Origin: a virus
Reading direction: 5' to 3' (one strand)
DNA length: 64,000 bases
IMG/VR virus record: IMGVR_UViG_3300044712_000688
Location: 64,001-128,000 of that record
Shown: in pieces, positions 5,027 to 26,009 of the stretch
How the letters are laid out: each line of letters starts with the position of its first letter
Position numbering within the stretch: the first letter of the stretch is position 1
The notes under the pieces: model-generated
Told to the model about the DNA's origin: nothing
Seen by the model: the letters and a program-made list of their open reading frames with translations, nothing else
Databases searched by the model: none
Position numbers and translations under genes: made by a program

Positions 5027-5936
5027 GTGGGTAGATACTCCGGGAATTAGAGAATCCATAGAATCATTTAGGGCCGAGAATGTCGAACCCACAAAGACTA
5101 TTCCACTAGGGTCCGAGCTTTATAAGTTCAATACGACAACTTCAAGATTTAAGACTGTCTGCAAAAATGCATCCAAGATTGACAAAGCCTTTGATCCAAG
5201 CCAGCTTTACGTTCTAAATTCTGACGGGCTCAGGTCTGATGAATTCACCAGCGAGCATGACGGTAAGCACGTTCTTTTTGCTGGATGCTCAGTTACCGCA
5301 GGTGAGGGACTTTTACTGGAACACACATGGGCATATAAGGTCTACCAAGAGCTAGCTCAGACAGAGAAACTGTCTGGCTATTTCAACATTGCTTTTCCAG
5401 GGGCATCTATTGCAGAGATAATCTCTCAAATATTTAGATACATAAATCTGTACGGCAACCCTTCAACTATTTTTGTCAACTTCCCCGACCCTGACCGAGA
5501 GTACTACTACGCATCAGCTATGGATTTCAGGGAGAGCGACTCCGTCCATGGCATAGACGATCCGATGAAACTAGTAGACACCAAGCAAATTGACTCACTT
5601 GTTTTTGCTTTGTATCTAGCGTTGAATGTCTACTGTAGGGCGCAGGGGATAACTCTGATAGCGACTACGTGGGCATCTTTAGAGTGGCGCACAGATCTAG
5701 AACACTACTCAGGGGATGTTCGAGAGAGCCTTCTAGGTCTCGACTTGACTAATCAGGAAAGTGCGATAGAAGCCCACTGTCAGAACTATGAGCTAGAATA
5801 TAAACACAGTAAATACAAAAAGTTTTTTCGCGATGCTCTTGACGAAGATCACCAAGGTCTAGCGATACATGATTACTATTCTAAATATTTTATGAATCGG
5901 TATCATGACAGTAGAGATGCAGAGATTGGATTCTAA
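5019..5936 (+). CDS. Hypothetical protein, SGNH/GDSL-like fold
   Basis: LFAGCSVTAGEG block I-like motif, NIAFPGAS, C-terminal DHQG; overlaps carbamoyltransferase stop. Confidence 0.55.
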   Translation: MRRWVDTPGIRESIESFRAENVEPTKTIPLGSELYKFNTTTSRFKTVCKNASKIDKAFDPSQLYVLNSDGLRSDEFTSEHDGKHVLFAGCSVTAGEGLLLEHTWAYKVYQELAQTEKLSGYFNIAFPGASIAEIISQIFRYINLYGNPSTIFVNFPDPDREYYYASAMDFRESDSVHGIDDPMKLVDTKQIDSLVFALYLALNVYCRAQGITLIATTWASLEWRTDLEHYSGDVRESLLGLDLTNQESAIEAHCQNYELEYKHSKYKKFFRDALDEDHQGLAIHDYYSKYFMNRYHDSRDAEIGF

Positions 5937-8000: not shown

Positions 8001-9761
8001 TTGGGAATTTTTAAAAAGAACAACAAAAATGCTCGCGGTAGAGCATTGGCTGCTGGGTTGCGTGCATCTACTCCCCGAAGTGCAACCCCTATCGCTCCAG
8101 GCATCTCTGTAGACTCGTTCGGTCTGGTATATGCAGAGCCTGCATCCTACAATGCACCTCGCCCTCTTACTGCTGCCGCTGCTCAGATCCGAATCGGCGA
8201 CAAAACTGAAGCGGAAATGTTTAAGAATCGTCGTCAGTCAGCTGCGACTGCATGGCAAGCCGAAGCATGGGAGTACTACGATGCAATTGGTGAAATTAAA
8301 TATGCGTTTAATCTTGTGGCGTCTGTCGTATCACGTATCCGCCTTTACGCTGCTGCTGTAGATGACCCATCGGAAGCTCCAGTACCAGTTGATCTCTCAA
8401 AGATTGTTGATCCTCAGCTGGCATCTGCTGCTCAGCGTGCGCTATCTCGTCTTGACTCAGCTTATGGTGGTCAGGCAGGTCTTCTAAAGGACGCAGCCCT
8501 AAACTTGCAGGTCACTGGTGAGTGCTACCTAGTTCAGGTTCCAGAGCGTATTGGTTCACAGATTCCAGAGTCGTGGGATATCCGTTCCGTAGACGAACTA
8601 CAGCTTGACTCACGTGGAAACTACACCATCAACCCGATTCGTGACGCTAGCGGTTCTTCTTCAGGTCAAGCTGGTAAGAATGCAATCCGTCTACCGTCCG
8701 ATGCGTTTATCGGACGTATCTGGAAAGCACACCCACGCTACTCAATGGAGTCTGACAGCTCGCTACGCGGACTTTTAGATCTCTGTGCGGAATTGTTGCT
8801 ACTTAACCGTACTTTCCGCGCTACGGCCCGTTCTCGCCTCAATGCGGGTGCTTTGTACCTGCCTGACGGTTTGTCTGTTGCAGCTAGCCCTGACCCAGAC
8901 TACCCATACGACGAAGATGGCGAGTACAACGAGCTCTACAACACCGAAGAAGCTGCCGACGACTTTGAGGATCAGCTCATTGACGCGATGACCACTCCGA
9001 TCAAGGACGAGGACTCTGCTTCTGCTGTTGTTCCACTGATCATTCGTGGTCCGGCTGAACTTGGCGACAAGATCAAGCAGTTCAAGTTCGAGCGTTCATT
9101 CGACGCATCGCTAGTTGCTCGTGCTGATCGTGTACTAGAGCGCATCATGCAGGGTCTAGACGTCCCTAAAGACGTTGTGACGGGACTTGCGAACGTTAAG
9201 TACTCCAACGCACTACAAATCGATGAAGCCCTCTACAAGGCGCACATCGAGCCTCTGATGCTACTTATTGCTGACGCACTAACTGTTGTGTACCTGCGTC
9301 CATACCTAATCGCCAACGGCTACGACAAAGATGAAGTAGACCGTATTCAGGTTTGGTATGACCCGAGCCAAGTTGCTACTCGTAATGACCGCGCAGCCGA
9401 TGCTGACTCTGGTTTCGAAAAGATGGCAGTGTCTTTCAACACTTGGCGTCGTGCGCATGGCTTCTCTGAGGCAGATGCACCGAGTCCAGAAGAGTTGGCG
9501 CTACGTCTTGTTGTCGAGAAGGGTATGATCACTCCAGAGTTGACTCAGTCAATGCTAGAAGCGGTTGCACCAGAGCTTAAGGACCTGATCAATGCAGCCA
9601 GCCAAGCAAACTCTGTTGCTCCGATGACACCAGAGATTGAAAACATTCTCGAAGGTGGTCCAGGCACCCCTACCCCAGAGCCATCGGCTGAAACCGCTCC
9701 AGCCGAAGCACCACCTACATCAGCAGCCCCAACTACAGAACCTGAGGTACCAACACCATGA
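8001..9761 (+). CDS. Portal protein
   Basis: Position after terL; WQAEAWEYYDAIGEIKYA and LGLDVP-like motifs typical of actinophage portals; TTG start with GGGAG RBS. Confidence 0.85.
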   Translation: MGIFKKNNKNARGRALAAGLRASTPRSATPIAPGISVDSFGLVYAEPASYNAPRPLTAAAAQIRIGDKTEAEMFKNRRQSAATAWQAEAWEYYDAIGEIKYAFNLVASVVSRIRLYAAAVDDPSEAPVPVDLSKIVDPQLASAAQRALSRLDSAYGGQAGLLKDAALNLQVTGECYLVQVPERIGSQIPESWDIRSVDELQLDSRGNYTINPIRDASGSSSGQAGKNAIRLPSDAFIGRIWKAHPRYSMESDSSLRGLLDLCAELLLLNRTFRATARSRLNAGALYLPDGLSVAASPDPDYPYDEDGEYNELYNTEEAADDFEDQLIDAMTTPIKDEDSASAVVPLIIRGPAELGDKIKQFKFERSFDASLVARADRVLERIMQGLDVPKDVVTGLANVKYSNALQIDEALYKAHIEPLMLLIADALTVVYLRPYLIANGYDKDEVDRIQVWYDPSQVATRNDRAADADSGFEKMAVSFNTWRRAHGFSEADAPSPEELALRLVVEKGMITPELTQSMLEAVAPELKDLINAASQANSVAPMTPEIENILEGGPGTPTPEPSAETAPAEAPPTSAAPTTEPEVPTP

Positions 9762-10213
9762 CCTACGAAAAAAACGGTCTAGCAAAACATTTAGCACACT
9801 TGCTAGCCGATGTAGTTACTCTTGGATTCCTGACTCAGGGATATCACTGGAATGTAAAGGGACTCAACTTCTCTCAGTTCCATGAGTTTTTTGCAGAGAT
9901 TTATGGAGATGTTGATAGCGCGATTGATCCGCTTGCTGAGAACATCCGCAAACTCGGGTATGACTCTCCTTACTTGCTCACTGACTTTGCTGAGCTGACT
10001 TGTATTGTCCGCCAAGAGCGCGAACTCGGTGACGCGGTTTCAATGGTAGAGTCTCTGGCTCGTGTAAACCAGTCAGTGCTTATGTGCTACGAACAGGCCT
10101 TCACCATGGCCAGTGCTTGCAATGAGCAGGGAATTGCTGATTTTGTTGCTGGACGTATTGACATGCACCAGAAGTGGCAGTGGCAGTTGAAATCAACTCT
10201 AGGGGTTCAGTAA
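9758..10213 (+). CDS. dps: Dps / ferritin-like protein
   Basis: YHWNVKG, FHEFF and IDPLAENI carry the Dps ferroxidase His/His/Asp/Glu set; KWQWQL C-terminus; ATGA overlap with portal. Confidence 0.9.
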   Translation: MTYEKNGLAKHLAHLLADVVTLGFLTQGYHWNVKGLNFSQFHEFFAEIYGDVDSAIDPLAENIRKLGYDSPYLLTDFAELTCIVRQERELGDAVSMVESLARVNQSVLMCYEQAFTMASACNEQGIADFVAGRIDMHQKWQWQLKSTLGVQ

Positions 10214-10968: not shown

Positions 10969-13900
10969 GTGAGCTCAGCATTCACTACTCTCATCAGCAA
11001 GATTGAAAACTACTACGCTGATCACGACTACACTACCGAGGATGCCGAGTATCTTTCTCGACTAGCCATCGTTGAGTACGCTAAGGAAAAGAACGCGCTG
11101 GTTGCTTCAGCTCGTCAGGTTCCAGAGACTTCGATTGACAACATCATCGAGACAGCAATCCACTTCAACCTAGATGCTGACCCGAGCGAGTGGATGCTAT
11201 TTGCAGCTAACGCTGTTGACAACGTCCTCAACTACTCCCACCACGGAATCATCGCCTCTGGCCTTGGCGAATACACCGACTTCCTACCTCTAGGACACCC
11301 TTCACGTACTAACCGCGGTGCTATGACCGCATCTGCTCTATCTCAGTTGACTGCCCTCTGGGTGGCCGGAGATCCTCGCATTGCTTCGGAGCAGGCTCGT
11401 CTTGACGTTTACAGTGCATATGCGACCAAGCCTGGGTCAGTAGAAGCCGACTACGCTAGCGCAAAGCTAGGTGCTTTAGTTGCTGCTGGCTATGTCCCAG
11501 AAGACGTAGTACTTCCTGTTACTGCAGCTTTCAAGATGAGCTTCGCTATGCGTTCTGCAATGGCAAAGGCGCTGGCCGCTGTTCGTCGTCGTCACCGTGA
11601 CGGTCGATTCGCGGAAGAGTTCGGACGTCTACGTGGGTTCTTCAAGCGCGGAGACGGAAGCATCTTCTCCGAGGATGGCCGTATTGTTGGTGCGCCAGCT
11701 GGAACTAATAACTTCCAGATTGAGATTAAAGACAGTCCAGAAATTCCTGATGGCATCTACACCATTGACGCTGCAAAGACTGCGCCAGTAAAAGCTATTC
11801 TTTCTAAGCGTGCGCTTTCTAAGGTAAAGGGTCTTAAGGCTAACCGCTCCATCACAAACCCGAGCAAGGCAGATATTGCTTCTGCAATTCCTCTAGAAGA
11901 CTTCCTAAAGACCCGTGCAGATGCTCCAGAGGGCTGGACCAAAAACGAAGACGGTTCTTTCACCTCTAAGACTGGTCAGACCGTAAAGGCAATTACCACC
12001 CAGCCTAAGGGCGACTATATGGTTGAGGGCGCAGGCGAGAGCGGTGCCATTGACCCTAACACCCCGATGTTTGAGATTCGCGATAAGAATGGCGAGCTTC
12101 TAGGTGTTGGTCAGAACTGGGCAGGTCTTAACAAGATTGCTATGACCTATGACGCCCTAAGTGGCGAAGGTAGCAACACTCCAGACGAGCCAGGGCTAGA
12201 CCAGAAGGCTGGTGGCTCTAATCTTGACTCGCTAGTTAAGGAGCTAAAAGACGCTTCGTCTAAGTGGATGGATGAACAGCGCTTCAGCCCAGACGAGTAT
12301 GACGAGGCCACGGATGCAATGCCAGACCCTGCCGTTACTGCTGACTTTATTCTCCAAGCTGAGAAGTCGGGGGACACCTCGGAACTCAAAGGGCTACTTG
12401 ATGCTTATGAGGAAAGGCCATATGCTGAAGTCCTTAAGAAGGCAATTGAGCGTATTGATGGTGAAAAGGGTCTAGACCAGAAGCCGGGAGAAGGCAAGAA
12501 CTGGTATGACAACACCATTGACTTTGACCACCTATCTGATCCAGCTAACTGGAAGGGCTTTAAGGAAGGTACCCATGAGTACGTCTCTCCAGATGGAAAG
12601 CTAGAGCTAACTTGGGAGCCAGACGGTGAGCCAGACATGGGCGATGGCGCTACAGATCTGTCTGGAATTAGTGTTACCTATGATGGTCAGCCAATTGGCT
12701 CTTACTTGGCAAGTTACCGTGATTTAGAAGACGGCGACATCGCAGATGGCCTAAAGGATCTTTTCAAGAAGGAAAGCTGGTTCAGCCCAGACAACCTTGT
12801 TAAGTTCGGCCAGTATGGCAGTGCAGAATACAACAGCCCTGACGGTGGTGGCGTATACGTTGAACCTAAGGGCTCTAAGTATGAAGTTACTAAGTCGATT
12901 CCTCAGGGTATGATTGACGAAAACGTCGAACACTCCTATGAAAAAGTCGAGACCTACAACACCAAGGAAGAGGCCCACAAAGCGGCCGAAGACTTTGCAA
13001 GGTTGCTTGAGGACCCTTCGAAGAAGTATGACCTTCTATACGGGGACTGGAGTGACAGTGACGGTGGCTTTGATCAAGCTCCGGGCGAACCTACAAAACT
13101 AAGCGCAGCTGGTAAGAAGATTGCCAAGGACCTAGGTGACCACAAGTTCTTCCTCGAAGAGGATGCAGACGGAAACTTTACTGGAGGAGAATCAACTTAC
13201 ACTTCTCCAGATGGTCGTGTAGAAGTTAAGTACCGTGACGGCTCTTGGTTTGATGACGAGAAGGGCTACGTTGCTTGGGACGAGATGCAGGTCTCTGTAG
13301 ACGGCAAGCCAGTTGACAGCGTACTTCGCAACAAGCGAGAGTCTTGGCCTGACTTTCTTGACCGTGTTGCTGCTATGGCAGAGAACGGTCTAGAGAACCC
13401 TAACTATGCAGAAGAGAAGAAGGCTAAGCGCGAAGCCGACCGCAAGGCTCAGGAAGACTTCTATAACTCTCCAGAGCAGGTAGAAAAGCGTGCCCGCGCT
13501 AAGTGGGAAAAGGAGCAGGAAGAAGCTGCTCAGGCTCAGGCTCGTGATGCAGCTGACAAAGAAGGTCTACTTAAGAAGGTAGATGATCTAGCAAACAAGA
13601 TCTTCAATGGTGAAAGCGACGACAGCATCTGGGTTGGCGACGAGGACGAAGAAGGCTTCCGCAACTGGGGCGTCTATAACGAAGATGGCGAAGAGGTTGC
13701 GACCGGAAACGCTGGACCAAACTGGGACGCTACTGATATTGCTTCCGAAATTCGTGATGGCGTTAACTCGTACCTAGACAAGAAGATGGAAGAAGAGGCT
13801 GACTTCCAGTCGGGCTTTGACCAGAAGGCTGGCGAAGACAAGGCGGAGGCACCAGCTAAGCCACTATCTGAAAAGCAGATGGAACCAGCTACTGACAAGC

Positions 13901-16392
13901 AGTACGCACTTCTTGAGGAGCTTAACTCAGAGCGTGATGGTATTGACCCAGTCACTCAGAAGGCTATTGACGATGCACTAGCCAACAAGAACCTGACAAA
14001 GGCTCAGATGGCGTCTCTGTTTGGCGACCTTACTAAGAAGCCTTTCAAGCCAAACGTAGACCCTACCAAGCCAACCGAGCGCCAGATCAACTCGCTTCAG
14101 GGCTACCTAACCACCAAAGAACTAACTCCTGACGAGATGAACGACATTCTTGCTCAGCTTGATGCGGGACTAGATCGCGACTCAATCGAAAAGATTACTG
14201 CCAAGCTACGTCGTCGTCCAGACCGTCAGCCGACTGAAGGATTTGACCAAGCTGCCGGAATTGACAGCGAGTTCGATGACGAATACGACTCGGCTCACGC
14301 TGATGTAGAGTCTGCAATTGACCAAGCTCTGGAGGACTACCAGAACTCGCTGGAGGCTGACGGACTATCTGAGGCAGAGATTTCTGACAAGATGGACGAG
14401 GCAAACCAGATTGCCGAGCGTCTGCGTGATTCGTCCAATGTTGCTGACGCACAGGGAGCCGAGCGTGACATTGCTAACGACACCACTGGTGGAATCTTTG
14501 ACAAGATTGTTGAAGACATTCGCACTAACGCAGAGGCTCTAGACTCACGTAAACAGAAGAACCTTGCTGACGCTGATCAGGCGAAGGCAGACGAGGTTCA
14601 GGCTGCGATTGACGGAGACGACTCTAGCTTCCTCGAAGACATCGTAAATGACCCGAGCTACAGCGAGTATCAGTCTCAGATTGAGGATGCTCTCGCTGAC
14701 ATCAACGCACGTAAGGGCGAAGAAGAGCCTGGATTTGATCAGGCTTCTGGTAAGACCATTGCTGATGCATGGGAAGGTCTAGACCAAGATACCAAGGACA
14801 GCGTAGTCGAGTCAATGAGCGACTACCTACTTAAGTTACGTCAAACTAACCCAGACGAGTTCTACGACATGGTTTATGACGTAGCTGTAGATCACCCAGA
14901 TGGCAAGCGTGTGATGCAAAAGCCTCAGAACTATGCCGAGGACTTCATTGACTTCTATGCTAATGAAGACCCAGAGCTGATTGCAGACATGCTTGAAAAT
15001 GCTGGAGTTGATCTTGACGGCTTTGACCAAGCTCCAGGCAAGACTCTATCTCCAAAGATGATGGAGCCAGCTACTGACGCTCAGTACAACTACTTGCAGA
15101 GTCTTTTCGACAGCAAGACTGGAATTGATGACGAGACTGCTCAGGCTGTTAAGGAAGCTCTTGACTCAAAGAACTTGACTAAGGCTCAGGCTGGTGGATT
15201 CATCGGTAAGCTCCGTGACCTTGGTGACAAGGAGAACATGGGCCAGTACGGCAAGCCTTCTCAGAAGATGATTGACTCTGTAAAGCGTGACGTCTACGCT
15301 AAGGGCCTATCTGACGCAGACCGCGAAGAAATTCTTAAGGGTCTAGAGGACAAGTCAAAGGGCGATGTCTCATTTATTATCAGCATGCTGAAAGAAATGG
15401 ATGACGTCGAGGGTGGTATTCCAAAGTACATTGACAGCCTAGTTCAGAGTGGCGACGTAGATGCATTGAAGCGTCTACGTGCTGACGATCGCTATGGTCG
15501 TTGGTCAAGCCAGATGGATGACGCTCTAGCAAAGATGGACTCTGGTAATCAGGGTTTTGACCAAGCTCCCGGGGAGCGCTCTAGCAGCGACCGAGGTCAG
15601 ATGAAGTCAGATCTATCTTCTCTAGCTGAAGAGGTAGAGAACAGCAATGAAATCGGCTACGCATTTCTAAACAAGAACTTCGTTGACGGTCTTGATCTGA
15701 ATGACCCTGACGACGCTTACTACCTACACGCTGAGTTGATGGATGCATACAAAGCAATGCGTCCTAACTCAGAAGAAGGTAAGGCATTGGAAGCTCGTCT
15801 TAAGAAGGCTGCTGATGACCTGCTCAACAGCATCGAGTCAGACCTAGGCCCTATTGAAGCAGCTAAGCGCGACCCAGAAGACATGGGAAGCAGTTTTGAA
15901 TTTGATAGTGCTGTAGATGACCTACCTGACTTCTTTGACTACTACTTCCCGACTGATGCATCATCGGATATGAGAAATGATCCAGATGGTGGTTCAGTTG
16001 GTGATGTTCGAGGTGGTGGCTGGGAAGCTTCTGTACGCTTCAACGAGGAAACTCAGAAGTGGGAAGCCGACATGACTTCGCCAGGATTTGCTTCCGAGAA
16101 CTACAGCGAGTCTTTCGATGACCAAGATGAAGCAGCCGACTGGGTAGCAAATGAGCTTGATCGCCAGAACACTTCAACACGTAATCGTGACACTAATATT
16201 CTTGCTGAAGATGGTCTTGCCGGACTCATCGAGGAGTATGGAGATGATCCAGCAGAACTAGCTGGCGTTCTAGAAGGTGTCATTGGATGGCTTCGAGGTA
16301 CTAACCGTGGACAAGCACAGAAGATTGCAAGTACTCTAGATGACTATGTTACTCGCCTACGCGAGCAGCTGGCCAAAAACCCAAAAGCCTAG
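10969..16392 (+). CDS. Giant acidic multi-module head-associated (polyvalent-type) protein, about 1807 aa
   Basis: Long ORF in head module; GTG 10969 follows CAGGAAGG; eight G[FL]DQ linkers and repeated helical modules. Confidence 0.85.
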   Translation: MSSAFTTLISKIENYYADHDYTTEDAEYLSRLAIVEYAKEKNALVASARQVPETSIDNIIETAIHFNLDADPSEWMLFAANAVDNVLNYSHHGIIASGLGEYTDFLPLGHPSRTNRGAMTASALSQLTALWVAGDPRIASEQARLDVYSAYATKPGSVEADYASAKLGALVAAGYVPEDVVLPVTAAFKMSFAMRSAMAKALAAVRRRHRDGRFAEEFGRLRGFFKRGDGSIFSEDGRIVGAPAGTNNFQIEIKDSPEIPDGIYTIDAAKTAPVKAILSKRALSKVKGLKANRSITNPSKADIASAIPLEDFLKTRADAPEGWTKNEDGSFTSKTGQTVKAITTQPKGDYMVEGAGESGAIDPNTPMFEIRDKNGELLGVGQNWAGLNKIAMTYDALSGEGSNTPDEPGLDQKAGGSNLDSLVKELKDASSKWMDEQRFSPDEYDEATDAMPDPAVTADFILQAEKSGDTSELKGLLDAYEERPYAEVLKKAIERIDGEKGLDQKPGEGKNWYDNTIDFDHLSDPANWKGFKEGTHEYVSPDGKLELTWEPDGEPDMGDGATDLSGISVTYDGQPIGSYLASYRDLEDGDIADGLKDLFKKESWFSPDNLVKFGQYGSAEYNSPDGGGVYVEPKGSKYEVTKSIPQGMIDENVEHSYEKVETYNTKEEAHKAAEDFARLLEDPSKKYDLLYGDWSDSDGGFDQAPGEPTKLSAAGKKIAKDLGDHKFFLEEDADGNFTGGESTYTSPDGRVEVKYRDGSWFDDEKGYVAWDEMQVSVDGKPVDSVLRNKRESWPDFLDRVAAMAENGLENPNYAEEKKAKREADRKAQEDFYNSPEQVEKRARAKWEKEQEEAAQAQARDAADKEGLLKKVDDLANKIFNGESDDSIWVGDEDEEGFRNWGVYNEDGEEVATGNAGPNWDATDIASEIRDGVNSYLDKKMEEEADFQSGFDQKAGEDKAEAPAKPLSEKQMEPATDKQYALLEELNSERDGIDPVTQKAIDDALANKNLTKAQMASLFGDLTKKPFKPNVDPTKPTERQINSLQGYLTTKELTPDEMNDILAQLDAGLDRDSIEKITAKLRRRPDRQPTEGFDQAAGIDSEFDDEYDSAHADVESAIDQALEDYQNSLEADGLSEAEISDKMDEANQIAERLRDSSNVADAQGAERDIANDTTGGIFDKIVEDIRTNAEALDSRKQKNLADADQAKADEVQAAIDGDDSSFLEDIVNDPSYSEYQSQIEDALADINARKGEEEPGFDQASGKTIADAWEGLDQDTKDSVVESMSDYLLKLRQTNPDEFYDMVYDVAVDHPDGKRVMQKPQNYAEDFIDFYANEDPELIADMLENAGVDLDGFDQAPGKTLSPKMMEPATDAQYNYLQSLFDSKTGIDDETAQAVKEALDSKNLTKAQAGGFIGKLRDLGDKENMGQYGKPSQKMIDSVKRDVYAKGLSDADREEILKGLEDKSKGDVSFIISMLKEMDDVEGGIPKYIDSLVQSGDVDALKRLRADDRYGRWSSQMDDALAKMDSGNQGFDQAPGERSSSDRGQMKSDLSSLAEEVENSNEIGYAFLNKNFVDGLDLNDPDDAYYLHAELMDAYKAMRPNSEEGKALEARLKKAADDLLNSIESDLGPIEAAKRDPEDMGSSFEFDSAVDDLPDFFDYYFPTDASSDMRNDPDGGSVGDVRGGGWEASVRFNEETQKWEADMTSPGFASENYSESFDDQDEAADWVANELDRQNTSTRNRDTNILAEDGLAGLIEEYGDDPAELAGVLEGVIGWLRGTNRGQAQKIASTLDDYVTRLREQLAKNPKA

Positions 16393-16410
16393 CCCCCAAT
16401 GAGGGGGCTG
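16380..16410 (+). promoter_or_regulatory. Programmed -1 ribosomal frameshift signal (C CCA AAA plus hairpin)
   Basis: X XXY YYZ heptamer 16380-16386 in frame; stem AGCCCCC/GGGGGCT (16391-16409); -1 frame open from 16344 to 18692. Confidence 0.75.
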
Positions 16411-18692
16411 AGCCTGGATTAGATCAGGACGCTCCAGATTTAGACCGAATCAAGAGCATCCTAGATAAGTACCGTACTAAGCCAACTGCCACAGAGACTG
16501 TACGTCCATCTGTAGCCGAAGGCGAGCCGGGATCTAGAACTAATCCACTCGAACTTACTCAGGAGCAACTTGATGAAAAGCTTGCCTCTGTAACCGAGAC
16601 TAACAAGGCTGCGGCTTCCAGTGTTTTGTCTAGCGTACTAGACAAACTGCGCAATCCTAGAAGCATCAAAGATTGGGTACAAAAGTGGAAGAGAGACGGT
16701 AACCGACCTCTCCCAGTCAACCCTGCAAGTGAGACCCACTACACCGGCCCCAACCTATTGGTCTTGGAAAACGCAGCTTCAGAAAACGGATTCAGCGACC
16801 CTAGATGGATGAGTGCGTCTCAGGTTGCTCAGGCTGGAGGAACAATCCCAGCTGGAACCAAGGGTACTCAGATTCTTGTACCTAGCTTCTTTGTAACCAC
16901 CCGTGACGGCAAGGTTGTCGAGCACTTTGAGTTTAGAAAAGTCACTGTTTTTAATGGTGATCAGATTCAAGGAATCGCTCCATACAACGCTGACGAAAAC
17001 AAGTCCTACACCGCAAAAGAGGCTGTAGATATCATCCTTGACAGAATGCGTGAAGCAGCCGAGCTTCGAGGTGTCAAGGCTCCTGAAATGTTTGGTATTC
17101 AGCTAGATGAAAACCAGAATCCACGCTGGATGCCTAACTATCGCGGAGAAGTTGATAGGATCCGACTACCACTCCGAGCAAACTTTGATAGCGATGAGTC
17201 TTGGTTTAATGCCATTACCCACGAACTAATTCACAGCACGGGTAGAACCAACCGACTTAACCGAGAAGAAGTTAAGAAGGCACTAGATGGAAACAGCAAT
17301 GCCTACGCAGAAGAAGAGCTAACTGCCGAGCTAGGCTCCATGCTTCTATCAAAGATGTTTGGTCTTGACGCTGACCAAGATAACTCAATCAGCTACTTGC
17401 TCACTCACATTAGAAACCTAGATGGCATTGACGCGGATAAGGCCGTGACTGATGCCATGACTAGGGCACAGCTAGCTGCCGACTACCTGCTTGGTAACGA
17501 TGTTCTTCCTCAGTGGAACCCGCTGAAGACTAAGGTTGCCCCGACCCCACAGTCGGTAAGAATGGCGTCTACTACTCCAGAAGACTCGAGCCTGAACCCA
17601 GACACTAATCCTGATTCAGTTGATGCTCCTCTAGTAGGACTTGACCAAGCCCCGGGCAAGAAGCCTTTCAACCGCGCTAAGTCCGTGTCTGACAGCAAGG
17701 ATGCTAAAGAGCGAGTTCTATCTGGACTACTGGAAAAGATTAAAGAAGGTAAGGCTCCTTGGCGTAAGCCATTTAAGGATGACGCTAACTATGCTGGTGC
17801 ATTCGTTCCGCGTAACCCAGCATCGAAGCACATTTACAGCGGTATTAACTCGATTGTTCTTAAGCTGTACCAGCAGTTGTCTGGGTATGACGATCCTCGC
17901 TGGATGACCTACAACCAAGCCACAGAATTAGGTGGTCAGGTTCGTAAGGGCGAGAAAGGTGTACAAATCCTTGTTCCTTATAAGAGGGTCAAGAAAGAGA
18001 AGGATTCCTCAACTGGAGAAGAGAAGGTAACTGGTAGTTACGTAACATTTGGTGTAAAGACCGTGTTCAATGTTGAGCAGATTGATGGTCTAAACCTGCC
18101 TACCGTCAAGGCCGAGGCTGGAGAGCCTAAGACCCCGCTCGAGGCACAAGACTTCATTCTTGAGCGCTACCAAAAGTCAATGGAGGCCAAGGGTCTAAAG
18201 GCTCCTGAAATTTCATATACATATGTAGGTCAGTACGGTAGCCACTCATCTTCTCCAAACTGGGACCCAAGTTTCGACATGATTACCCTCCCAACCAAGG
18301 AGCAGTTCAATAGCCCAGAGGATATGTTTGACACCATTGCCCATGAGCTTGCTCACTCGACCGGACACAGGGATCGCCTTGACCGCACCGAGCTAACCAA
18401 GAACTATGGAACAAGCAATGCAGCCCGAGGTGAGGAAGAGCTTATTGCAGAAATCTCTGCAGCAATCCTAGCCAGCATGTTCGGTGTTAACAGCGACTTT
18501 GACAATACCGCGGCCTATGTAAAGAGTTGGCTAAAAGCACTACAGGATAACCCTGATATGGTTATGAAAGCCTCTTCTGAAGCTCAGAAGGTAGTAGACT
18601 ATTTGCTAGGTATGGATCTGGGAGACTGGAGCCCTATCGAGGGTTACCGAGCATCAAACAAATCTAAATCAGATGGAGACTCAGATGAGTAA
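16386..18692 (+). CDS. ardC: Tandem ArdC-like protein (2x ssDNA-binding DUF1738 plus zincin metallopeptidase), probably the -1 frameshift extension of the giant protein
   Basis: PVNPASETHYTGPN..PRWM and PRNPASKHIYSGIN..PRWMTYNQA..GGQVRKGEKG; HELIH and HELAH HExxH motifs each followed by EEELxAE; frame open 80 codons upstream of the track's TTG 16626, which lacks an RBS. Confidence 0.85.
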   Translation, partial: SLAPNEGAEPGLDQDAPDLDRIKSILDKYRTKPTATETVRPSVAEGEPGSRTNPLELTQEQLDEKLASVTETNKAAASSVLSSVLDKLRNPRSIKDWVQKWKRDGNRPLPVNPASETHYTGPNLLVLENAASENGFSDPRWMSASQVAQAGGTIPAGTKGTQILVPSFFVTTRDGKVVEHFEFRKVTVFNGDQIQGIAPYNADENKSYTAKEAVDIILDRMREAAELRGVKAPEMFGIQLDENQNPRWMPNYRGEVDRIRLPLRANFDSDESWFNAITHELIHSTGRTNRLNREEVKKALDGNSNAYAEEELTAELGSMLLSKMFGLDADQDNSISYLLTHIRNLDGIDADKAVTDAMTRAQLAADYLLGNDVLPQWNPLKTKVAPTPQSVRMASTTPEDSSLNPDTNPDSVDAPLVGLDQAPGKKPFNRAKSVSDSKDAKERVLSGLLEKIKEGKAPWRKPFKDDANYAGAFVPRNPASKHIYSGINSIVLKLYQQLSGYDDPRWMTYNQATELGGQVRKGEKGVQILVPYKRVKKEKDSSTGEEKVTGSYVTFGVKTVFNVEQIDGLNLPTVKAEAGEPKTPLEAQDFILERYQKSMEAKGLKAPEISYTYVGQYGSHSSSPNWDPSFDMITLPTKEQFNSPEDMFDTIAHELAHSTGHRDRLDRTELTKNYGTSNAARGEEELIAEISAAILASMFGVNSDFDNTAAYVKSWLKALQDNPDMVMKASSEAQKVVDYLLGMDLGDWSPIEGYRASNKSKSDGDSDE

Positions 18693-18913: not shown

Positions 18914-21028
18914 ATGAACCACCTAATCGGCCGCTCTGGCGAACTAGCATTCTATGCTAACAATACACACGGTGTAGTGATCAACACTGCCGTAGGAGCT
19001 GTCGTCGCTAGCGGTGTAGCCCTCGACATTTTCGCAGAAAACAAATGGGAAACCTCGGGTACCCCCCTTACTCCGGCTGAAAAACTGCTTGCCGATAAGG
19101 TTCTAGCCAACCTAGAAGAAGAAGCCATCGTTGCTTCTGCAGACAGAATGTACACCATTCCTAAGTCTGTAGAGGCAGAGGCAAAGAAAGCTTTAGAGTG
19201 GCGTAAGGAAGAAGGCCGAGGAGGGACTCCTGTTGGCCTAAACACTGCTCGCACGCTTGCTAAGGGCGGTCAGATCGGTATCCGCAAGATTCGCCACATT
19301 GCTAAGTACTTCCCTCGTCACGAAGTTGATAAGAAGGGTAAAGGCTGGAAGCCTGGCCAAGATAACTTCCCATCTAACGGTCGTATCGCATGGGCACTTT
19401 GGGGTGGAGACGCCGCTTGGCGTTGGGCACGTGCAATCGTTGAGCGCGAAGATAAGAAAGAGAAGTCAGTCACTGCTGGTGGTGGCTACACTGTCTCTAA
19501 CTATGTAGATCAGGTCAACTACCCTAAGCAGAACGAAGAGCTAAACCCGTTCAAGTACGCTCATGAGCTTGATGAAAACTACGGCCCAGAATTCTTGGCT
19601 CGAGTTTGCCTAGATGGTTCTGGTATTGACCGACTTTACATGATAGACATAGACGGCTCGGTCTACGTCTGGGACGACGCTTGCTGGGACAACCTAGGTC
19701 ACGTTGATGGTGACATCTGGACATACGACCGTATGTTGGATGATGTCTATGATCTAGAGGAAAAGTCTCACGTAATTATTGACCCTCAGTCTGCTCTTAT
19801 GATTGCAGCTCGTATGGCTGTAGACCCATACTGCAAGACTTCTGTCTTTGATCTAGATGCTGATGAAGCTTCTTTAATGGAGGCTGGTATTGGTGGCGAA
19901 GACTGGGAGTTTATTGACCAAGTAATTACTGCCGCAGCCCCTACCAACCAAGACGGCAACTACACTCCAGAAGAGCGTTCAGCAAACGCTGGTAACCAGC
20001 CTCGAGACGCTATGGGCCAGTTTGCTAAGGTAGGCCAGAAGGTAGCTATCGGTGGAGACGCTGCTAGAGGTTCTGGCACAATCCGCGACATTGATGGTGC
20101 TACTGGTATTGTTACCGTTGACCTTGCTGATGGACGAACTGTAAAGGTTGGTTCTAAGTACCTAGTCCCTGCAGAAAAGGCAAGTAGTCGTCCAAACTCT
20201 TTGCGTGTTGATGATGCAAATAAAGCTCCTATGGACTTCTCTGGGATCATTGGCGAGCCTCGTACTCCTCAGAACAGCAAGAAGGCCCACCTTCCGGGAA
20301 CTCTACCAAAGCTAGATGTCAATGAATTTATCAACAACTACGCTTCTTGGGTGGAGAAGGAACGCTACAAGCCAAGGAGCGCAGCTGACAAGGCTGCGGT
20401 CAAGAAGCGTTGGCCAAATGCCAAGTTCACAGATGCATCTATCATTGCCTCTGCCGAAGAGAAGATTCTCACTCCTTCAACTTCTGACGTAACCCCTAGG
20501 TACCTAGCTATCGTTGCTCAGGAAGACCCTGAAGCAATGGTTGATCTAGTAGCAATTATTCCTAAGACCGCTACTTCCACTTCTCCAATTGCCTACAAGC
20601 GTGAGGGAGATAAGTGGGTTCAGGATGACCAGACCCTAGCAGACCTTCGTTCAGCAACTAAGCCTCCAGTAGTAGAGCTAGATAAAGAATCCCTAAAGGA
20701 TGTTCTATCTCAGATGTCTGAGAACAAGCCTACAGAAGAGACTGCTCCAGAAGCGGTTATGGCTAGCTTGCTTACTGTCCTCGATGCTTTTGTGGCAGCA
20801 GGTGGAGCTGATAAGAACCGTGGCAACGCAGAAAAACTTCGTCGCTACTGGGTATATGGAGAAGGTGCTGCCAAGATCCGCTGGGGCCAGCCTGGAGACT
20901 GGAAGCGTTGTGTACGCTACCTAGCTAAGCACCTAGGCCCACGTGCAAAGGGATACTGCCAACTTCGTCACAAGGATGCCCTTGGCTACTACACCGCAAC
21001 CCATGCGAAAAGAGACCGTAATGGCTAA
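18914..21028 (+). CDS. Multi-domain head morphogenesis protein
   Basis: GRGGTPVGL..YFPRHEVD..IAWALWGGDA domain, QPRDAMGQF motif and C-terminal YWxxGxGAAKIRWG domain; head-module position. Confidence 0.7.
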   Translation: MNHLIGRSGELAFYANNTHGVVINTAVGAVVASGVALDIFAENKWETSGTPLTPAEKLLADKVLANLEEEAIVASADRMYTIPKSVEAEAKKALEWRKEEGRGGTPVGLNTARTLAKGGQIGIRKIRHIAKYFPRHEVDKKGKGWKPGQDNFPSNGRIAWALWGGDAAWRWARAIVEREDKKEKSVTAGGGYTVSNYVDQVNYPKQNEELNPFKYAHELDENYGPEFLARVCLDGSGIDRLYMIDIDGSVYVWDDACWDNLGHVDGDIWTYDRMLDDVYDLEEKSHVIIDPQSALMIAARMAVDPYCKTSVFDLDADEASLMEAGIGGEDWEFIDQVITAAAPTNQDGNYTPEERSANAGNQPRDAMGQFAKVGQKVAIGGDAARGSGTIRDIDGATGIVTVDLADGRTVKVGSKYLVPAEKASSRPNSLRVDDANKAPMDFSGIIGEPRTPQNSKKAHLPGTLPKLDVNEFINNYASWVEKERYKPRSAADKAAVKKRWPNAKFTDASIIASAEEKILTPSTSDVTPRYLAIVAQEDPEAMVDLVAIIPKTATSTSPIAYKREGDKWVQDDQTLADLRSATKPPVVELDKESLKDVLSQMSENKPTEETAPEAVMASLLTVLDAFVAAGGADKNRGNAEKLRRYWVYGEGAAKIRWGQPGDWKRCVRYLAKHLGPRAKGYCQLRHKDALGYYTATHAKRDRNG

Positions 21029-23861
21029 CGAACAAGAATTCCTTATGGAAGAGATTTTGACCAAGAATTACGGTGTTCCTACGGAGATCACCGATGAAGA
21101 TCTATTGATGCCTATCGAAGACATCATGTTTGAAGATGATGACATCTACGATGACTCTTGGGAGCCAGACGAGGAAACTTGCCGTCAGCTAGCCGAGCTA
21201 GCGGATTGCGATGACGAAGAATATGCGTCCCTTATTGCTGCTGGTGGCCTAGACCGTAACCGTGGTAACGCAGAGGAGCTTCGCCAGTACTGGACTCGCG
21301 GTAAGGGCGCTGCCAAGATTCGCTGGGGTACCCCTGGCGATTGGACTCGTTGCGTTCGTCAGCTTTCAAAGTACATGGGCCCACGCGCTAAGGGCTATTG
21401 CCAGCTACGCCACAAGGACGCGACTGGTATCTACACTGGTAGCCGATTCAACCCGGGCCGTCGTAATGAAACCTCTAGCCTATATGCAAGCGAAGCTGAG
21501 TTTACCCAGTCGGTTATCGCTCAGGCAGAACTTACTGCTAGAGCGAACCACGCTAGAGAGCGTTTCGGTCTAGTTGCAAGTGCTGGTATGCAACACGGTG
21601 CAAAGTTCAACATTCCTCTACTGATCCCAGAAGACTTGGAGTCAGGAGATGGCCGTAAGTTTGTGAAGGACTCTCTATCAGTTCGAGAGCTTCCACTTCC
21701 ACTTCTATGGCAGATCAAGACCGGCGACGGTCACATGGGGTCTGTGGTGGTTGGACGTATTGATTACGTAGAAAGAACCGAAAACGGTATTGGAAATGCC
21801 TATGGTGTTTTTGATACAGGAGCATATGGTCAAGAAGCAGAGCGTCTAGTACGTAACGGATTTATCCGTGGTGTTTCTGCAGATCTTGACCAGTTCGAAG
21901 CAGAAGAAGATAAGACTGAAAATGCTGAGGACACCGAAGACGTAGGTAAGAAGAAGTTAACCATAAATCACGCCCGTGTAATGGCTGCTACAATTGTAGC
22001 TAAGCCTGCATTCCAAGAATGCACTATCTCTATTGAAGAAAAACCAGCGGGAGACCAGGAGGATGAAGTGATTCCAGTTGACGGAATATATGAAGAATCC
22101 GTCGAACAAGAATTCTCTGGCACATCGCTAGTTGCTTCAGGATTCATTGACGGCGAGATTCCTATGACACCACCAGCAGAGTGGTTCAAGGATCCTAAGC
22201 TAACTAAGCCAACCCCAATCACCGTTGACCCTTCTGGTCGTATCTACGGTCACATTGCAGCTTGGCACGTAAACCACATTGGCATGCCTCGCTCTACCCG
22301 CCCACCTCGCTCAAAGAGCAAGTACGCATACTTCCACACTGGTGTAGTCCGCTGTGCTGACGGAACTGACATGCCAGTGGGACAGTTAACTCTTGCTGGT
22401 GGACACGCACCTCTAACTGCTAACGCTGCTTCTGCAGCTAAGCACTACGACGACACCGCTTCTGCGATTGCAGATGTTCACATGGGTGAAGACGAGTATG
22501 GAATCTGGTGTGCTGGCTCGGTACGTCCAGACGCAACCGAGATGCAGATTCGCGCACTTCGCGCTTCTGCTCCTTCTGGCGACTGGCGTCCAATTAATGG
22601 CTCGCTCGAGCTTGTTGCAGTTTGTCAGGTAAACGTTCCAGGCTTCCCGATTGCTCGCGCAATGGTTGCTTCAGGTAAGGTTATGGCTCTAGTTGCAGCT
22701 GGTGCAAGCATGATGGCAATCATGAAGAGTCAGCACGTAGCAACCCTATCTGAGCGTGCATACAACCTAGCTGAACTTTCAGCTAGCGCCCCAGACCTAC
22801 GTTCTCGTGTAAAGTCTGCAAAGAAGGCTGTAAAGAAGCAGGCTCTAGTTGCTGCTGCTGCTAAGGCAGAAGAACTAAAGACCCGTGCTCTAGTTGCTGC
22901 TGCCGTTGCCGAGCTAGCTAAGTTCTCTGACGAAGAGAGAATGAAGCTTGCTGACAAGGGTCAGGCTCTACCAGATGGTTCGTTCCCAGTGCGCAACGAA
23001 CAGGATCTCCGTAATGCTATCCAAGCATATGGACGTGCAAAGCGAGAGAACCGAGTAGCTGTCCGCAAGCACATTATCAAGCGAGCTAAGGCTCTAGGTA
23101 AGGCATACCTGATTCCAGATGAGTGGAAGTCAGCTGGTTCTACCGAGGCCGCGACAATCGTTGCTTCGATGCGTTCTCGTATCGCAGAATTTGCAGAAGC
23201 CCCGATCAAGGAGATTTCTGACGCAGACCTAAAGAAGCTGAAGGATGTAAAGGCCGAAGCTGACAAGCAGACTGCAGAAGAGATCAAGCTCGCTGAGGAT
23301 ATTCGTACTGGTAAGACTACTGCCAAGGAAGTCTATGACAAAGAAGGTCGTAGCAAGTACACCCCAAAAACCCAACCCCGTGACGCTAAAGGTAAGTACC
23401 GCAAGGTTCTTGCTCGACTAAAGCAGAACCTAGGTGTGGCGGGGCTTCAGAAGGCTTTGGAAAAGGTAGAAAAGGCAGAAAACCTAGAGTTTGCTGGCGA
23501 CTACGTAAACTCAGCCAAGGCTAGTAGCGAGCTACTAGGAATGATTGATCGTCTAGATACTAAGGCCCTAAACCCTAAGTCTCTAGAAAACGTCCGCTCA
23601 ACAGCGGCCGAACTAGGCAAGACAATTGCCAACCTTCCATTGCCATTCGGCAAGGAAGCTCAGAAAGTTAGATTTAGCGATCTACCTGCCGGACTAAAGA
23701 CACTCATCGATGGGATGATTTCTCGAGTCGAAGCAAAGATCGGTAAAGAGGACGCAGATATTGCAACCGCAAATCTGAAGTCCTTCATGTCTGGTGCAGA
23801 TGTCTATTCTCAGGCTGAAATTCAGTCAGAGATGAACACCCTGCTCCGACTCCTTACCTAA
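21021..23861 (+). CDS. Capsid maturation (prohead) protease-containing multi-domain protein
   Basis: GDGRKF..LPLPLLWQ..GHMGSVVVGRID protease-like segment, GRIYGHIAAW..SGDWR..VNVPGFP domain, ALPDGSFPVRN (DUF6582-like); directly upstream of capsid; ATG 21021 preferred. Confidence 0.75.
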   Translation: MANEQEFLMEEILTKNYGVPTEITDEDLLMPIEDIMFEDDDIYDDSWEPDEETCRQLAELADCDDEEYASLIAAGGLDRNRGNAEELRQYWTRGKGAAKIRWGTPGDWTRCVRQLSKYMGPRAKGYCQLRHKDATGIYTGSRFNPGRRNETSSLYASEAEFTQSVIAQAELTARANHARERFGLVASAGMQHGAKFNIPLLIPEDLESGDGRKFVKDSLSVRELPLPLLWQIKTGDGHMGSVVVGRIDYVERTENGIGNAYGVFDTGAYGQEAERLVRNGFIRGVSADLDQFEAEEDKTENAEDTEDVGKKKLTINHARVMAATIVAKPAFQECTISIEEKPAGDQEDEVIPVDGIYEESVEQEFSGTSLVASGFIDGEIPMTPPAEWFKDPKLTKPTPITVDPSGRIYGHIAAWHVNHIGMPRSTRPPRSKSKYAYFHTGVVRCADGTDMPVGQLTLAGGHAPLTANAASAAKHYDDTASAIADVHMGEDEYGIWCAGSVRPDATEMQIRALRASAPSGDWRPINGSLELVAVCQVNVPGFPIARAMVASGKVMALVAAGASMMAIMKSQHVATLSERAYNLAELSASAPDLRSRVKSAKKAVKKQALVAAAAKAEELKTRALVAAAVAELAKFSDEERMKLADKGQALPDGSFPVRNEQDLRNAIQAYGRAKRENRVAVRKHIIKRAKALGKAYLIPDEWKSAGSTEAATIVASMRSRIAEFAEAPIKEISDADLKKLKDVKAEADKQTAEEIKLAEDIRTGKTTAKEVYDKEGRSKYTPKTQPRDAKGKYRKVLARLKQNLGVAGLQKALEKVEKAENLEFAGDYVNSAKASSELLGMIDRLDTKALNPKSLENVRSTAAELGKTIANLPLPFGKEAQKVRFSDLPAGLKTLIDGMISRVEAKIGKEDADIATANLKSFMSGADVYSQAEIQSEMNTLLRLLT

Positions 23862-23868
23862 AAAATAA

Positions 23869-23876
23869 GGTACAAT
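23869..23876 (+). promoter_or_regulatory. GGTACAAT late-promoter-like motif upstream of major capsid
   Basis: Variant of the repeated motif, in the same AATAA...TTAG context. Confidence 0.55.
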
Positions 23877-23987
23877 TAGTGATAGGTGGAGCGCCTCGCA
23901 CATTCCGTGCTGAGTCCCTCAGCCTTGACTGTTCACCATGAATGGGATCTTCCTATTCATAAAACCAATACTGGCCTAGGAGGTACA

Positions 23988-26009
23988 GTGTACGACCAGA
24001 TTAAAACACAGCTAGACACCCTGGCTGATCTTAGCGATGAACAACTCGCTGAGCTTCAGACCCAGATTGTCGGCGAGTTTGAATCGATCGATGCTGATGA
24101 ACCAACTTCCGAGTCAGTTGATGCGATGACATCCCTAGCGGATTCCCTTGACATCGTACGTGGTGAGCTTTCTCGTCGCGAGGCCCTCGCTGAAGAGTTA
24201 GCTGCTCGTGCGGCTGAGGCTACTGCCCGTATTAAGGGTGGAGCCGAAGAAGGAGAGGAAATGGCTATGGAAGACATGCCAATCGTAGAAGAGGCCCCTG
24301 TAGAAGAGGCCCCTGTTGAGGAAGCCCCAGTAGAAGAAGCAGAGGAAACTCCTGCTGACGAAGTTACTGAGACTCCTGAAGAGGAAAAGAAGGAAGAGGA
24401 AGAGGACAAGGAAGAGCCTATGAAGGCATCTGCCGAGACCGAAACCACTCCTGAAACTTCAGCATCAATTGACCAGGAATCAGGTTCTGAACTATCGACC
24501 GAATCGGTTGAGACTGTTGACGAGACCATTACTGCAGACGGTTCTGCCGAGGAAGTAGTTGCTGATGAAGCTCCTGCTACCGAAGCTGCCGTAGAAGCAA
24601 CCGAAGCTCCGGCTGAAGTTGTTGTAGAAGCAGTAGAGGGTTCGGAAGCATCAGCCGAAGAAACCACTTTAGAAACATCAACCGCTCTCGTAGAAGAGCA
24701 GAAAGAGCAGGCACTAGTGAGCGCCGCAGCAGAACAGCCTTTCGAGGCTCCAGCTGACCGTCAGCCTGTAGTTCAGGTAACCGAGGCTCCAGTGGCAATC
24801 ACCGCTGGCGCAGACATCCCTGGCTACACCGCAGGCAGCACCATCAACGATATGAACGAAGTAGCTCAGGCTATGGAGAAGCGTATCCACTCGCTACGCC
24901 GTGTAAACGGCGGCGACGGAGAGCAGCACATCGTTGCATCTATCACCACTCAGTACCCAGAAGAGCGTACTCTTACTGCTAACGCAGAAGAGAATGCCCT
25001 CAAGATTGGTAACGTTGTAGGTCAGGACGCACTTGTTGCTTCTGGTGGCCACGCAGCTCCATTCGAGGTCAAGTACGACATCTTCGCAATCGGTTCAACC
25101 ACTGTACGCCCAGTTCGCGATGCACTGCCTCGCTTCCAGGCTGACCGTGGCGGTATCCGCTTTGTGACCCCACCTAGCTTCGCATCTGGTGACTACGCTA
25201 GCGCAGTTGGCGTATGGACCGCAGCTGTTGACGCTGACCCACAGAGCGCTACTAAGACCAGCTTGACCGTTACCGCTGCTCAGGAGCAGACTGTTTCGAC
25301 TGACGCTGTTACCTTGCAGCTACAGTTCGGTAACCTCATGACTCGTGCTTACCCAGAGTTGATTGCTCGCCACAACGAGCTAGCTCTTGTACAGCACGCT
25401 CGCGAGGCAGAGCAGAACCTGCTAAGCAAGATTGGTGACGCTTCGACTGCTGTTACTACCACCAACCTAATCGGTTTTGGTCGTGACTTCCTAGTTCAGA
25501 TCCGTCGTGCAGCTGTTGCTTACCGCTCACGTCACCGCATTGACCCACAGACCCGTCTGAAGGCTATCGTTCCTTCATGGATCTACGAGGCAATGGCAGC
25601 TGACCTAACCCTATCAATGCCTGGTGACGGCACCCTTGCTGTCTCACGCGCTGAGATTGATGGTTACCTTGCAACCGTTAACGTTGACCTAGTGGCTTCG
25701 CTAGACCAGAACGTCTTCGGTGCACAGGGTGCTTCGGCTCTTCTAGAGTTCCCAGACAGCTTCGTTTGGTACCTCTTCGCAGAAGGCACCTTCCTGTTCC
25801 TTGATGGCGGTACTCTTGACCTTGGTATCATCCGTGACTCGTCACTGGTTGGCACCAACGACTACAAGATGTTCACCGAAACCTTCGAGAACGTTGCTAA
25901 GGTCGGTATCGAGGCTCTTAAGATCACCTCGACCATCTCAATCAACGGTGTTGCTGCAGCTCTGCGCGACACCACTGGTGGCACCGCTGCAGCCACCATC
26001 GAGCTCTAA
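23988..26009 (+). CDS. Major capsid protein (hexamer type) with long acidic N-terminal scaffold-like region
   Basis: GTG 23988 after AGGAGG; Glu/Ala-rich N-terminus; ALVASGG..VRDALPRFQADRGGIRF and FLFLDGGTLDLGIIRDS..NDY motifs. Confidence 0.9.
   Translation: MYDQIKTQLDTLADLSDEQLAELQTQIVGEFESIDADEPTSESVDAMTSLADSLDIVRGELSRREALAEELAARAAEATARIKGGAEEGEEMAMEDMPIVEEAPVEEAPVEEAPVEEAEETPADEVTETPEEEKKEEEEDKEEPMKASAETETTPETSASIDQESGSELSTESVETVDETITADGSAEEVVADEAPATEAAVEATEAPAEVVVEAVEGSEASAEETTLETSTALVEEQKEQALVSAAAEQPFEAPADRQPVVQVTEAPVAITAGADIPGYTAGSTINDMNEVAQAMEKRIHSLRRVNGGDGEQHIVASITTQYPEERTLTANAEENALKIGNVVGQDALVASGGHAAPFEVKYDIFAIGSTTVRPVRDALPRFQADRGGIRFVTPPSFASGDYASAVGVWTAAVDADPQSATKTSLTVTAAQEQTVSTDAVTLQLQFGNLMTRAYPELIARHNELALVQHAREAEQNLLSKIGDASTAVTTTNLIGFGRDFLVQIRRAAVAYRSRHRIDPQTRLKAIVPSWIYEAMAADLTLSMPGDGTLAVSRAEIDGYLATVNVDLVASLDQNVFGAQGASALLEFPDSFVWYLFAEGTFLFLDGGTLDLGIIRDSSLVGTNDYKMFTETFENVAKVGIEALKITSTISINGVAAALRDTTGGTAAATIEL

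Follow-up and report, generated by a model that had tools for sequence, protein, structure and literature searches.

The window analysed here is a stretch of 64,000 nucleotides (nt), bases 64001-128000 of the 136,298-bp IMG/VR virus record IMGVR_UViG_3300044712_000688, which has direct terminal repeats. The head-morphogenesis block of the window lies on the + strand. Downstream of its portal gene come two small genes, a giant open reading frame (ORF1) and an ORF with ArdC domains (ORF2). ORF1 (10969..16392, +) starts with GTG and encodes a modular protein of 1,807 amino acids (aa) that ends in NPKA before a TAG stop. ORF2 (16386..18692, +) has 768 codons and a stop, lies in the -1 frame of ORF1 and has no start codon. 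We describe the junction of the two, which very probably is a site of programmed -1 ribosomal frameshifting.

The codons at the end of ORF1 read GCC AAA AAC CCA AAA GCC TAG in the 0 frame. They hold a slippery heptamer C_CCA_AAA (16380..16386, +) in the X_XXY_YYZ register, and the 0-frame stop TAG (16390..16392, +) follows one codon past it. After a spacer of 4 nt comes a putative stimulatory hairpin (16391..16409, +) with a 7-bp stem of five C-G pairs, a G-C and an A-U. Its 5′ arm spans 16391-16397, the 5-nt loop 16398-16402 and the 3′ arm 16403-16409. The A and G of the stop make up the hairpin base, and a T-run is absent 3′ of the stem.

The hairpin core is predicted to fold with -14 kcal/mol, and its 41-nt context has a z of -3.4 against shuffled sequences. 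In-frame XXXYYYZ heptamers (Y = A/T) are found twice among the 1,808 ORF1 codons and 11 times among 9,864 codons of other genes; the in-frame canonical heptamer thus has a frequency of about one per 900 codons in this phage. Chance alone would not be expected to put one within a gene's last three codons.

Between 16344 and 18692, the -1 frame stays open, with ...PKSLAPNEGAEPGLDQDAPD... in its translation. Its first ATG, GTG or TTG is TTG 16626, which has no Shine-Dalgarno (SD)-like motif; counted from there, an apparent intergenic gap of 233 nt separates the two ORFs. A G-L-D-Q linker (16416..16427, +) lies inside this gap, 10 codons past the slip site. An earlier note on this DNA had described the heptamer ahead of the stop, the hairpin four nt past it, the open -1 frame with its linker across the gap and the poorly equipped TTG, and all of these were found as it had placed them.

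Past the linker, ArdC unit 1 (16428..17636, +) consists of a leader of ~65 aa, an ArdC-N domain and a metallopeptidase (MPTase) domain with an intact HExxH. Another G-L-D-Q linker (17637..17648, +) separates it from ArdC unit 2 (17649..18689, +), whose ArdC-N lies at ~17697-18038 and whose MPTase, again with HExxH intact, lies at ~18258-18578. The Pfam families ArdcN (PF08401; 162.5 bits against a cut-off of 22.6) and MPTase-PolyVal (PF18818; 161.5 bits against 27.5) each match two stretches of ORF2. The 'anti-restriction protein' family phrog_7245 matches it as well (1.5e-119). The catalytic motifs are HELIH and HELAH in translation, each with a downstream EEEL-x-AE helix. By domains and catalytic motifs alike, ORF2 is predicted to encode two ArdC anti-restriction/metallopeptidase units.

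Relatives were collected by protein-based searches of IMG/VR and JGI metagenomes. Seven further distinct contigs from independent metagenomes (L001, L002, L003, L006/L020, L008/L021, L010 and L019) have a last ORF1 module that is 37–91% identical to that of the window. Each keeps the heptamer, a GCN codon, TAG and a CCCCC-N5-GGGGG hairpin, followed by an open -1 frame. The alignment that the earlier note had proposed thus finds the heptamer, hairpin and frame offset kept in every distinct relative, and the heptamer is invariant in all 9 lineages examined.

When the DNA pattern of this cassette was searched for by itself across 2.9 million IMG/VR contigs, the same contigs only were recovered. 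In a collection of 5.8 billion proteins, the homologous clusters all end in PKA (25/25). A blastn search of the junction against 50,697 phage genomes gave no match.

Of the 32 cassette positions, 26 are invariant; variation is confined to the loop, where all five bases vary, and to the third base of the spacer's Ala codon. Four-fold sites of the flanks, taken from columns of invariant amino acids, are invariant in 0/21, 3/35 and 2/22. No other 32-nt window within 720 nt is as conserved: the cassette has 27 invariant positions, whereas the mean is 10.2 (standard deviation 5.3). To judge from this comparison, what has been selected is the nucleotide sequence with its fold and not the peptide that it encodes.

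The apparent gap itself behaves as a coding sequence. Between the hairpin and the region of TTG 16626, the pairwise ratio of nonsynonymous to synonymous substitution rates (dN/dS) is 0.04–0.24 in the -1 frame among the relatives compared. The changes concentrate at the third codon position, with 1/1/13 by codon position between the window and L001. Scans of the gap's + strand for promoters, terminators and Rfam elements found none. By their substitutions, the 233 nt are protein-coding in the -1 frame and are under purifying selection.

A conserved start for this coding stretch is missing. The first canonical in-frame start comes 43, 44, 48, 48, 76, 82, 82 or 144 codons past the heptamer, depending on the relative, and none of these starts has an SD-like motif in any relative. 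The one in L002 falls inside the ArdC-N domain. Upstream, a stop closes the -1 frame 1–17 codons 5′ of the heptamer, again depending on the relative. Therefore, the change of frame has to take place within ~13 nt including the heptamer in L002 and L019.

The four sequence features of a -1 site are thus all found at this junction, namely the heptamer in register, the 3′ structure, the startless -1 ORF under coding selection and the conservation. We consider a programmed -1 ribosomal frameshift, giving a fusion of ORF1 with the ArdC units, to be the best reading of these sequences and a highly probable one. The ORF1 start is GTG 10969 according to its homologues, not the upstream alternative TTG 10945, so the predicted fusion has 1806 + 768 = 2,574 aa. 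This agrees with the ~2570 aa of the earlier note, whose central claim, a frameshift that joins the giant to tandem ArdC-metallopeptidase units, gains support from the conserved cassette with its frozen synonymous sites, the coding gap, the want of a conserved start, a linker shared by both ORFs and single-ORF homologues in a sister lineage.

Mechanistically, CCA would occupy the P site and AAA the A site of a ribosome on ORF1 when it is two codons short of the stop. The G+C hairpin 4 nt downstream would resist unwinding, and tRNA-Pro and tRNA-Lys would slip back together by one base, from CCA AAA to CCC AAA. Reading would resume at AGC in the -1 frame to give ...N-P-K-S-L-A-P... and run via a short connector and the G-L-D-Q linker into the two ArdC-N/zincin (MPTase) units. 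Ribosomes that do not slip would stop and yield the 1,807-aa protein, and those that slip would yield the 2,574-aa fusion.

That ribosomes slip here, and at what rate, we infer from the signal, and the shift by a minority of them is our assumption. Since ORF2 has no start codon, the ArdC/MPTase units would be made only joined to ORF1. They would thereby carry the ORF1 N-terminal domain, which probably directs them to the procapsid. Both products may be packaged and injected, and their G-[LF]-D-Q linkers may be cleaved, with the MPTase itself as a possible agent.

A second lineage (L029, L030 and L032) has a 3,341-aa ORF1 with a different last module. Its cassette consists of the same heptamer, GCG TAA and a 5-bp C/G hairpin, and 3′ of it lies a -1 ORF of 1,775 codons with two ArdC units at its end. 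Extra modules occur also among the closer relatives between the cassette with its linker and the ArdC units, always in the -1 frame, with ~150 aa in L010, ~310 aa in L019 and three modules in P0033.

One module type with an EGNHR motif stands directly past the frameshift in L030 (11743-17082), L019 (3834-5126) and P0033, and is reminiscent of ParB/Srx-type domains. A ParB-like domain was considered for it in these three and given up, as Pfam brought no confirmation and no match at E < 0.01.

In a sister lineage (P0040, P0041 and P0044; 2,848–4,167 aa), the counterpart is a single unbroken ORF. Its N-terminal domain is 35–37% identical to that of ORF1 (E 1e-56 to 1e-62), and it too has ORF1-like modules, G-F-[DN]-Q linkers and a C-terminal double ArdC that is 44–46% identical to ORF2. 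When P0041 is aligned across the L030 junction, it lacks exactly the nine residues encoded by the heptamer, the stop and the hairpin arm.

The fused forms surfaced in an exhaustive search of representatives; an earlier search with the ArdC leader, up to 3,910 aa, had given only P0033. Altogether, the single-ORF polyvalent versions span 2,848–5,432 aa. By their sequences, these natural fusions show the joined polypeptide to be the likely functional unit.

Translation of ORF2 on its own would begin at a non-canonical start in the gap or by termination-reinitiation, with the hairpin serving as an RNA stability or processing element. It would agree with what a gene caller reports, a 233-nt spacing and TTG 16626, and about half of the phage's genes have no SD-like motif either. 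An in-frame ATC, the Ile codon of a conserved R-I-x-S-I-L, is also available ~24 codons past the heptamer. However, the protein conservation and the linker begin 10–12 codons past the heptamer, where no ATG, GTG, TTG, CTG or ATN occurs in any of the 8 relatives. The first canonical starts farther on are not conserved, the L002 one lies inside ArdC-N, and the phage genes that follow real intergenic gaps do carry SD-like motifs. Moreover, this explanation leaves the invariant in-frame heptamer and the cassette-free single-ORF homologues unaccounted for, and we regard it as very improbable. The change of frame could instead be transcriptional, by RNA polymerase slippage at a short A-run that makes some mRNAs one base shorter. 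Products of this kind are known to arise by such slippage as well (PMC5009743), and the window site has runs of A5 and A4. However, conservation is limited to CCC(C)AAAA, the A5 run being absent from L003 and L008. Homopolymers that support polymerase slippage are usually much longer than four A's. The exact X_XXY_YYZ register is conserved, and a conserved hairpin 3′ of the run suits a ribosomal stimulator, not slippage driven by the nascent RNA. Hence polymerase slippage appears slightly more improbable still.

The break might also be an indel from sequencing or assembly, or a mutation that recently inactivated the gene, in what is truly one ORF. Homopolymers are indel-prone, and the sister lineage does have single-ORF homologues. 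Yet these in-frame relatives are without the whole cassette and do not differ by one base. At least nine contigs, diverged and assembled independently, share the break, its register and its stop, as do 25 protein clusters, and both frames are under purifying selection. Since the cassette is frozen across relatives, an assembly indel is, like an independent start, effectively excluded by the sequences compared, and a one-ORF gene broken by error or decay has a negligible probability.

Several points weigh against the frameshift as the preferred reading. The spacers of -1 sites are usually 5–9 nt, and the 4 nt here are on the short side. The stem has only 5 pairs in the L030 lineage; elsewhere it never varies, so it offers no covariation, and the hairpin is backed by the frozen synonymous sites only. 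An upstream SD-like stimulator was not found conserved among the aligned relatives. The phage is uncultured, and the case is made from comparative sequence evidence. The placement of ORF1 in the virion is drawn only from its gene position and the homology of its N-terminal domain. Finally, as to the predicted cleavage at the linkers, the related phage DSL-LC01 has neither linkers nor ArdC, which is a single data point.

The G-[LF]-D-Q linker punctuates both ORFs. Its Gly codons in ORF1 lie at 12193, 12469, 13066, 13813, 14239, 14731, (14776), 15019 and 15553, and 116 distinct contexts from 23 homologues give the consensus P-G-[LF]-D-Q-[DAK]-[AP]-[PG]. The motif occurs 9 times in ORF1, 2 times in ORF2 and 3 times in the remaining 64 kb in six frames, and it was not found in the protease, scaffold and capsid genes. 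Its residues are disordered in an AlphaFold2 (AF2) model of the last ORF1 module.

The only peptidase domain of the polyprotein is the MPTase, which is found in the ORF2 extension alone. Because the linker motif is confined to the polyprotein with this one peptidase domain, the MPTase may be a more economical candidate for cutting the linkers than the prohead protease. Autoprocessing by MPTase domains has been proposed by Iyer et al. (PMC5512222).

Two further observations concern the linkers. The sole other in-frame canonical heptamer of ORF1, G_GGT_TTT at 15552-15558, sits exactly on the codon pair of a G-F-D-Q linker. In the clade of P0029 and P0030, the linker is G-L-G-Q and its last copy directly adjoins the conserved ending (…GLGQES-PKA); the slip site there appears inside a linker, not ahead of one. 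No relative of P0030 was found in IMG/VR.

A more far-reaching possibility, which we raise tentatively and think rather unlikely, is that the frameshift is a stoichiometry switch for a self-processing injected polyprotein and that the cassette is a portable regulatory linker. The trans-frame MPTase would cut the linkers of both short and long precursors, either within the capsid or once they are injected. Protease and ArdC, at a small fixed dose, would thereby free a larger dose of the cargo modules. Evolution would toggle between the recoded layout and the in-frame one of P0040, P0041 and P0044, and the cassette would move between module boundaries, as from the window lineage to the L030 lineage or the reverse.

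The recoding mechanism is textbook, and the novelty is in the gene context. Lactobacillus phage A2 reportedly uses the same C_CCA_AAA heptamer with a downstream stem-loop, which the earlier note had taken as established. Of that precedent, the frameshifting in A2 virion genes is confirmed by a review: the A2 major head protein (gp5A/gp5B) and major tail protein undergo a -1 shift near the end of the gene (PMC5009743). Both cases involve a late -1 shift in a gene of the structural module, with a normal product and a C-terminally extended one. They differ in that the A2 extension is a short immunoglobulin-like decoration of a capsid or tail protein, whereas here 768 to more than 1,775 residues of predicted enzymatic anti-defence modules would be put on a non-capsid cargo protein.

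Lambda-type sites usually have no strong downstream structure. Both T7/T3 gene 10A/10B and the lambda tail-chaperone genes G/GT are cases of conserved -1 recoding that fixes the ratio of a short and a long product with a shared N-terminus (PMC5009743). The present site is alike in being a -1 recoding signal in a morphogenesis gene of a double-stranded DNA phage, but it differs from them in the class of gene and in the payload.

The retroviral Gag-Pol offers an analogy, with an abundant precursor, structural or cargo, and a rarer frameshift-extended precursor that carries enzymes including a peptidase. Both are modular polyproteins with repeated inter-domain sites. However, there is no homology between them, and the peptidase here is a zincin MPTase, not an aspartic protease. 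By this analogy, a Gag-Pol-like protease role, product ratio and co-packaging may be envisaged.

The polyvalent proteins, including P1 Dar/Ddr and the N4 virion RNA polymerase, are very large and have MPTase as a hub with frequent pairs of ArdC-N and MPTase (PMC5512222). Iyer et al. (2017, PMC5512222) predicted that such proteins are packaged and then delivered along with the DNA. The predicted fusion resembles them, with ~9 modules and 2 ArdC units encoded between the portal and the protease/capsid genes. It differs in its division between two frames at a conserved recoding signal and in having an explicit repeated linker motif. Frameshifting has 0 occurrences in Iyer et al. 2017 (PMC5512222), and no relevant report of frameshifting in polyvalent, ejection or ArdC proteins came up in searches of the literature.

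The ArdC of plasmids (IncW pSa/R388) and the window's units share both Pfam domains, which here score above the curated cut-offs, each twice, with HExxH intact. Most ArdC homologues are free proteins of ~300 aa. The units of the window differ in being tandem, startless and C-terminal on a phage head-module giant.

What is new, as far as the sequences tell, is a conserved frameshift signal at a module boundary of a polyvalent cargo protein, predicted to add 768 to more than 1,775 residues of counter-defence modules. Known phage frameshifts add small decorations or a chaperone domain. The one in the window would decide whether a giant and probably capsid-packaged cargo protein bears anti-restriction and peptidase units. 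It may offer a simple, testable model of how phages control the amount of counter-defence enzymes that they inject.

The site matters also for annotation. Gene callers give ORF2 arbitrary internal starts or truncate it inside ArdC-N; therefore, ArdC is mis-annotated in these phages and its coupling to the cargo protein is missed. The G-[LF]-D-Q linker provides a concrete candidate substrate for the so far uncharacterised MPTase of polyvalent proteins. The recoded and the in-frame lineages, side by side, make a natural experiment on why recoding persists.

ORF1 begins with a conserved N-terminal domain (10969..12192, +), a candidate anchor or packaging domain. Its ~350 N-terminal residues match the N-termini of giants at the same position between portal and protease in DSL-LC01 (3,289 aa; E 1e-27) and Microbacterium phage Cece (gp68; E 7e-8), and the remainder of these two giants is unrelated to ORF1. 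The domain also matches the single-ORF giant P0048 besides P0040, P0041 and P0044, all within the E range given above. This fits a layout of a conserved anchor domain followed by variable cargo, and by homology and gene position the domain probably directs the protein into the procapsid.

The variable cargo modules of ORF1 (12193..15564, +) have G-[LF]-D-Q linkers between them. The last module (15553..16389, +) has ~280 aa with helices and a beta-meander, and is modelled with a pLDDT (predicted local distance difference test) of 86. No credible identity of any ORF1 module was found in Pfam (down to E = 1), PHROGs, PDB sequences or the ESM Atlas. Foldseek searches with the fold of the last module against PDB and BFVD gave nothing below E 0.03, and weak PUR/Whirly/YkuJ-like rows were not accepted.

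Two ORF1 modules, 13813-14250 and 15019-15570, are paralogous. Both open with L-S-x-K-x-M-E-P-A-T-D-x-Q-Y and contain N-L-T-K-A-Q, and they have a weak match to DUF3072 (E 0.002). In the L030 lineage, a module of the same type directly precedes the cassette, and P0044 has it in up to four copies.

The head-morphogenesis block contains, all on the + strand, the terminase large subunit (5936-7339), the portal (8001-9761), a 704-aa protein 3′ of the ArdC ORF (18914-21028), a protease/scaffold-like protein (21021-23861) and the major capsid protein (23886-26009). The nearest match of the capsid protein is in Actinomycetia phage DSL-LC01 (68.6% identity), whose genome was assembled from a Dishui Lake metagenome (PMC10611076), and the next-nearest ones are in Microbacterium, Arthrobacter, Gordonia and Mycobacterium phages. 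Hence, by these matches, the source is most likely an uncultured freshwater phage with an actinobacterial host. The capsid protein has 707 aa, of which the PHROG capsid profile spans residues 216-698 only. Its N-terminal extension of ~215 aa is possibly a delta or scaffold domain.

The overlap of the 704-aa gene with the next one was considered as a second recoding site and rejected, as the two genes overlap in the ordinary ATG/TAA manner and the second truly starts at ATG 21021 (20943-21060 of the window: ATGGCTAA). A motif of ~65 aa (phrog_6439) occurs at the C-terminus of the 704-aa protein and again near residues 110-170 of the protease/scaffold-like protein. In Microbacterium phage Cece, the equivalent of both proteins is one 1,548-aa 'capsid maturation protease'.

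Just 5′ of the terminase gene lies a Nol-like carbamoyltransferase (phrog_1601, E 5e-101; 3587-5026), and a small 'DNA binding protein' (phrog_3636; 9758-10213) is encoded between the portal and the head genes. In translation, the ORF1 N-terminal domain, the 704-aa protein, the protease and the N-terminal extension of the capsid protein (18914-26009 and 10969-11600) share recurrent short motifs that fit [LIV]-[VIT]-A-[SA]-[GA]. They are possible sites of the prohead protease, distinct from the G-[LF]-D-Q linkers.

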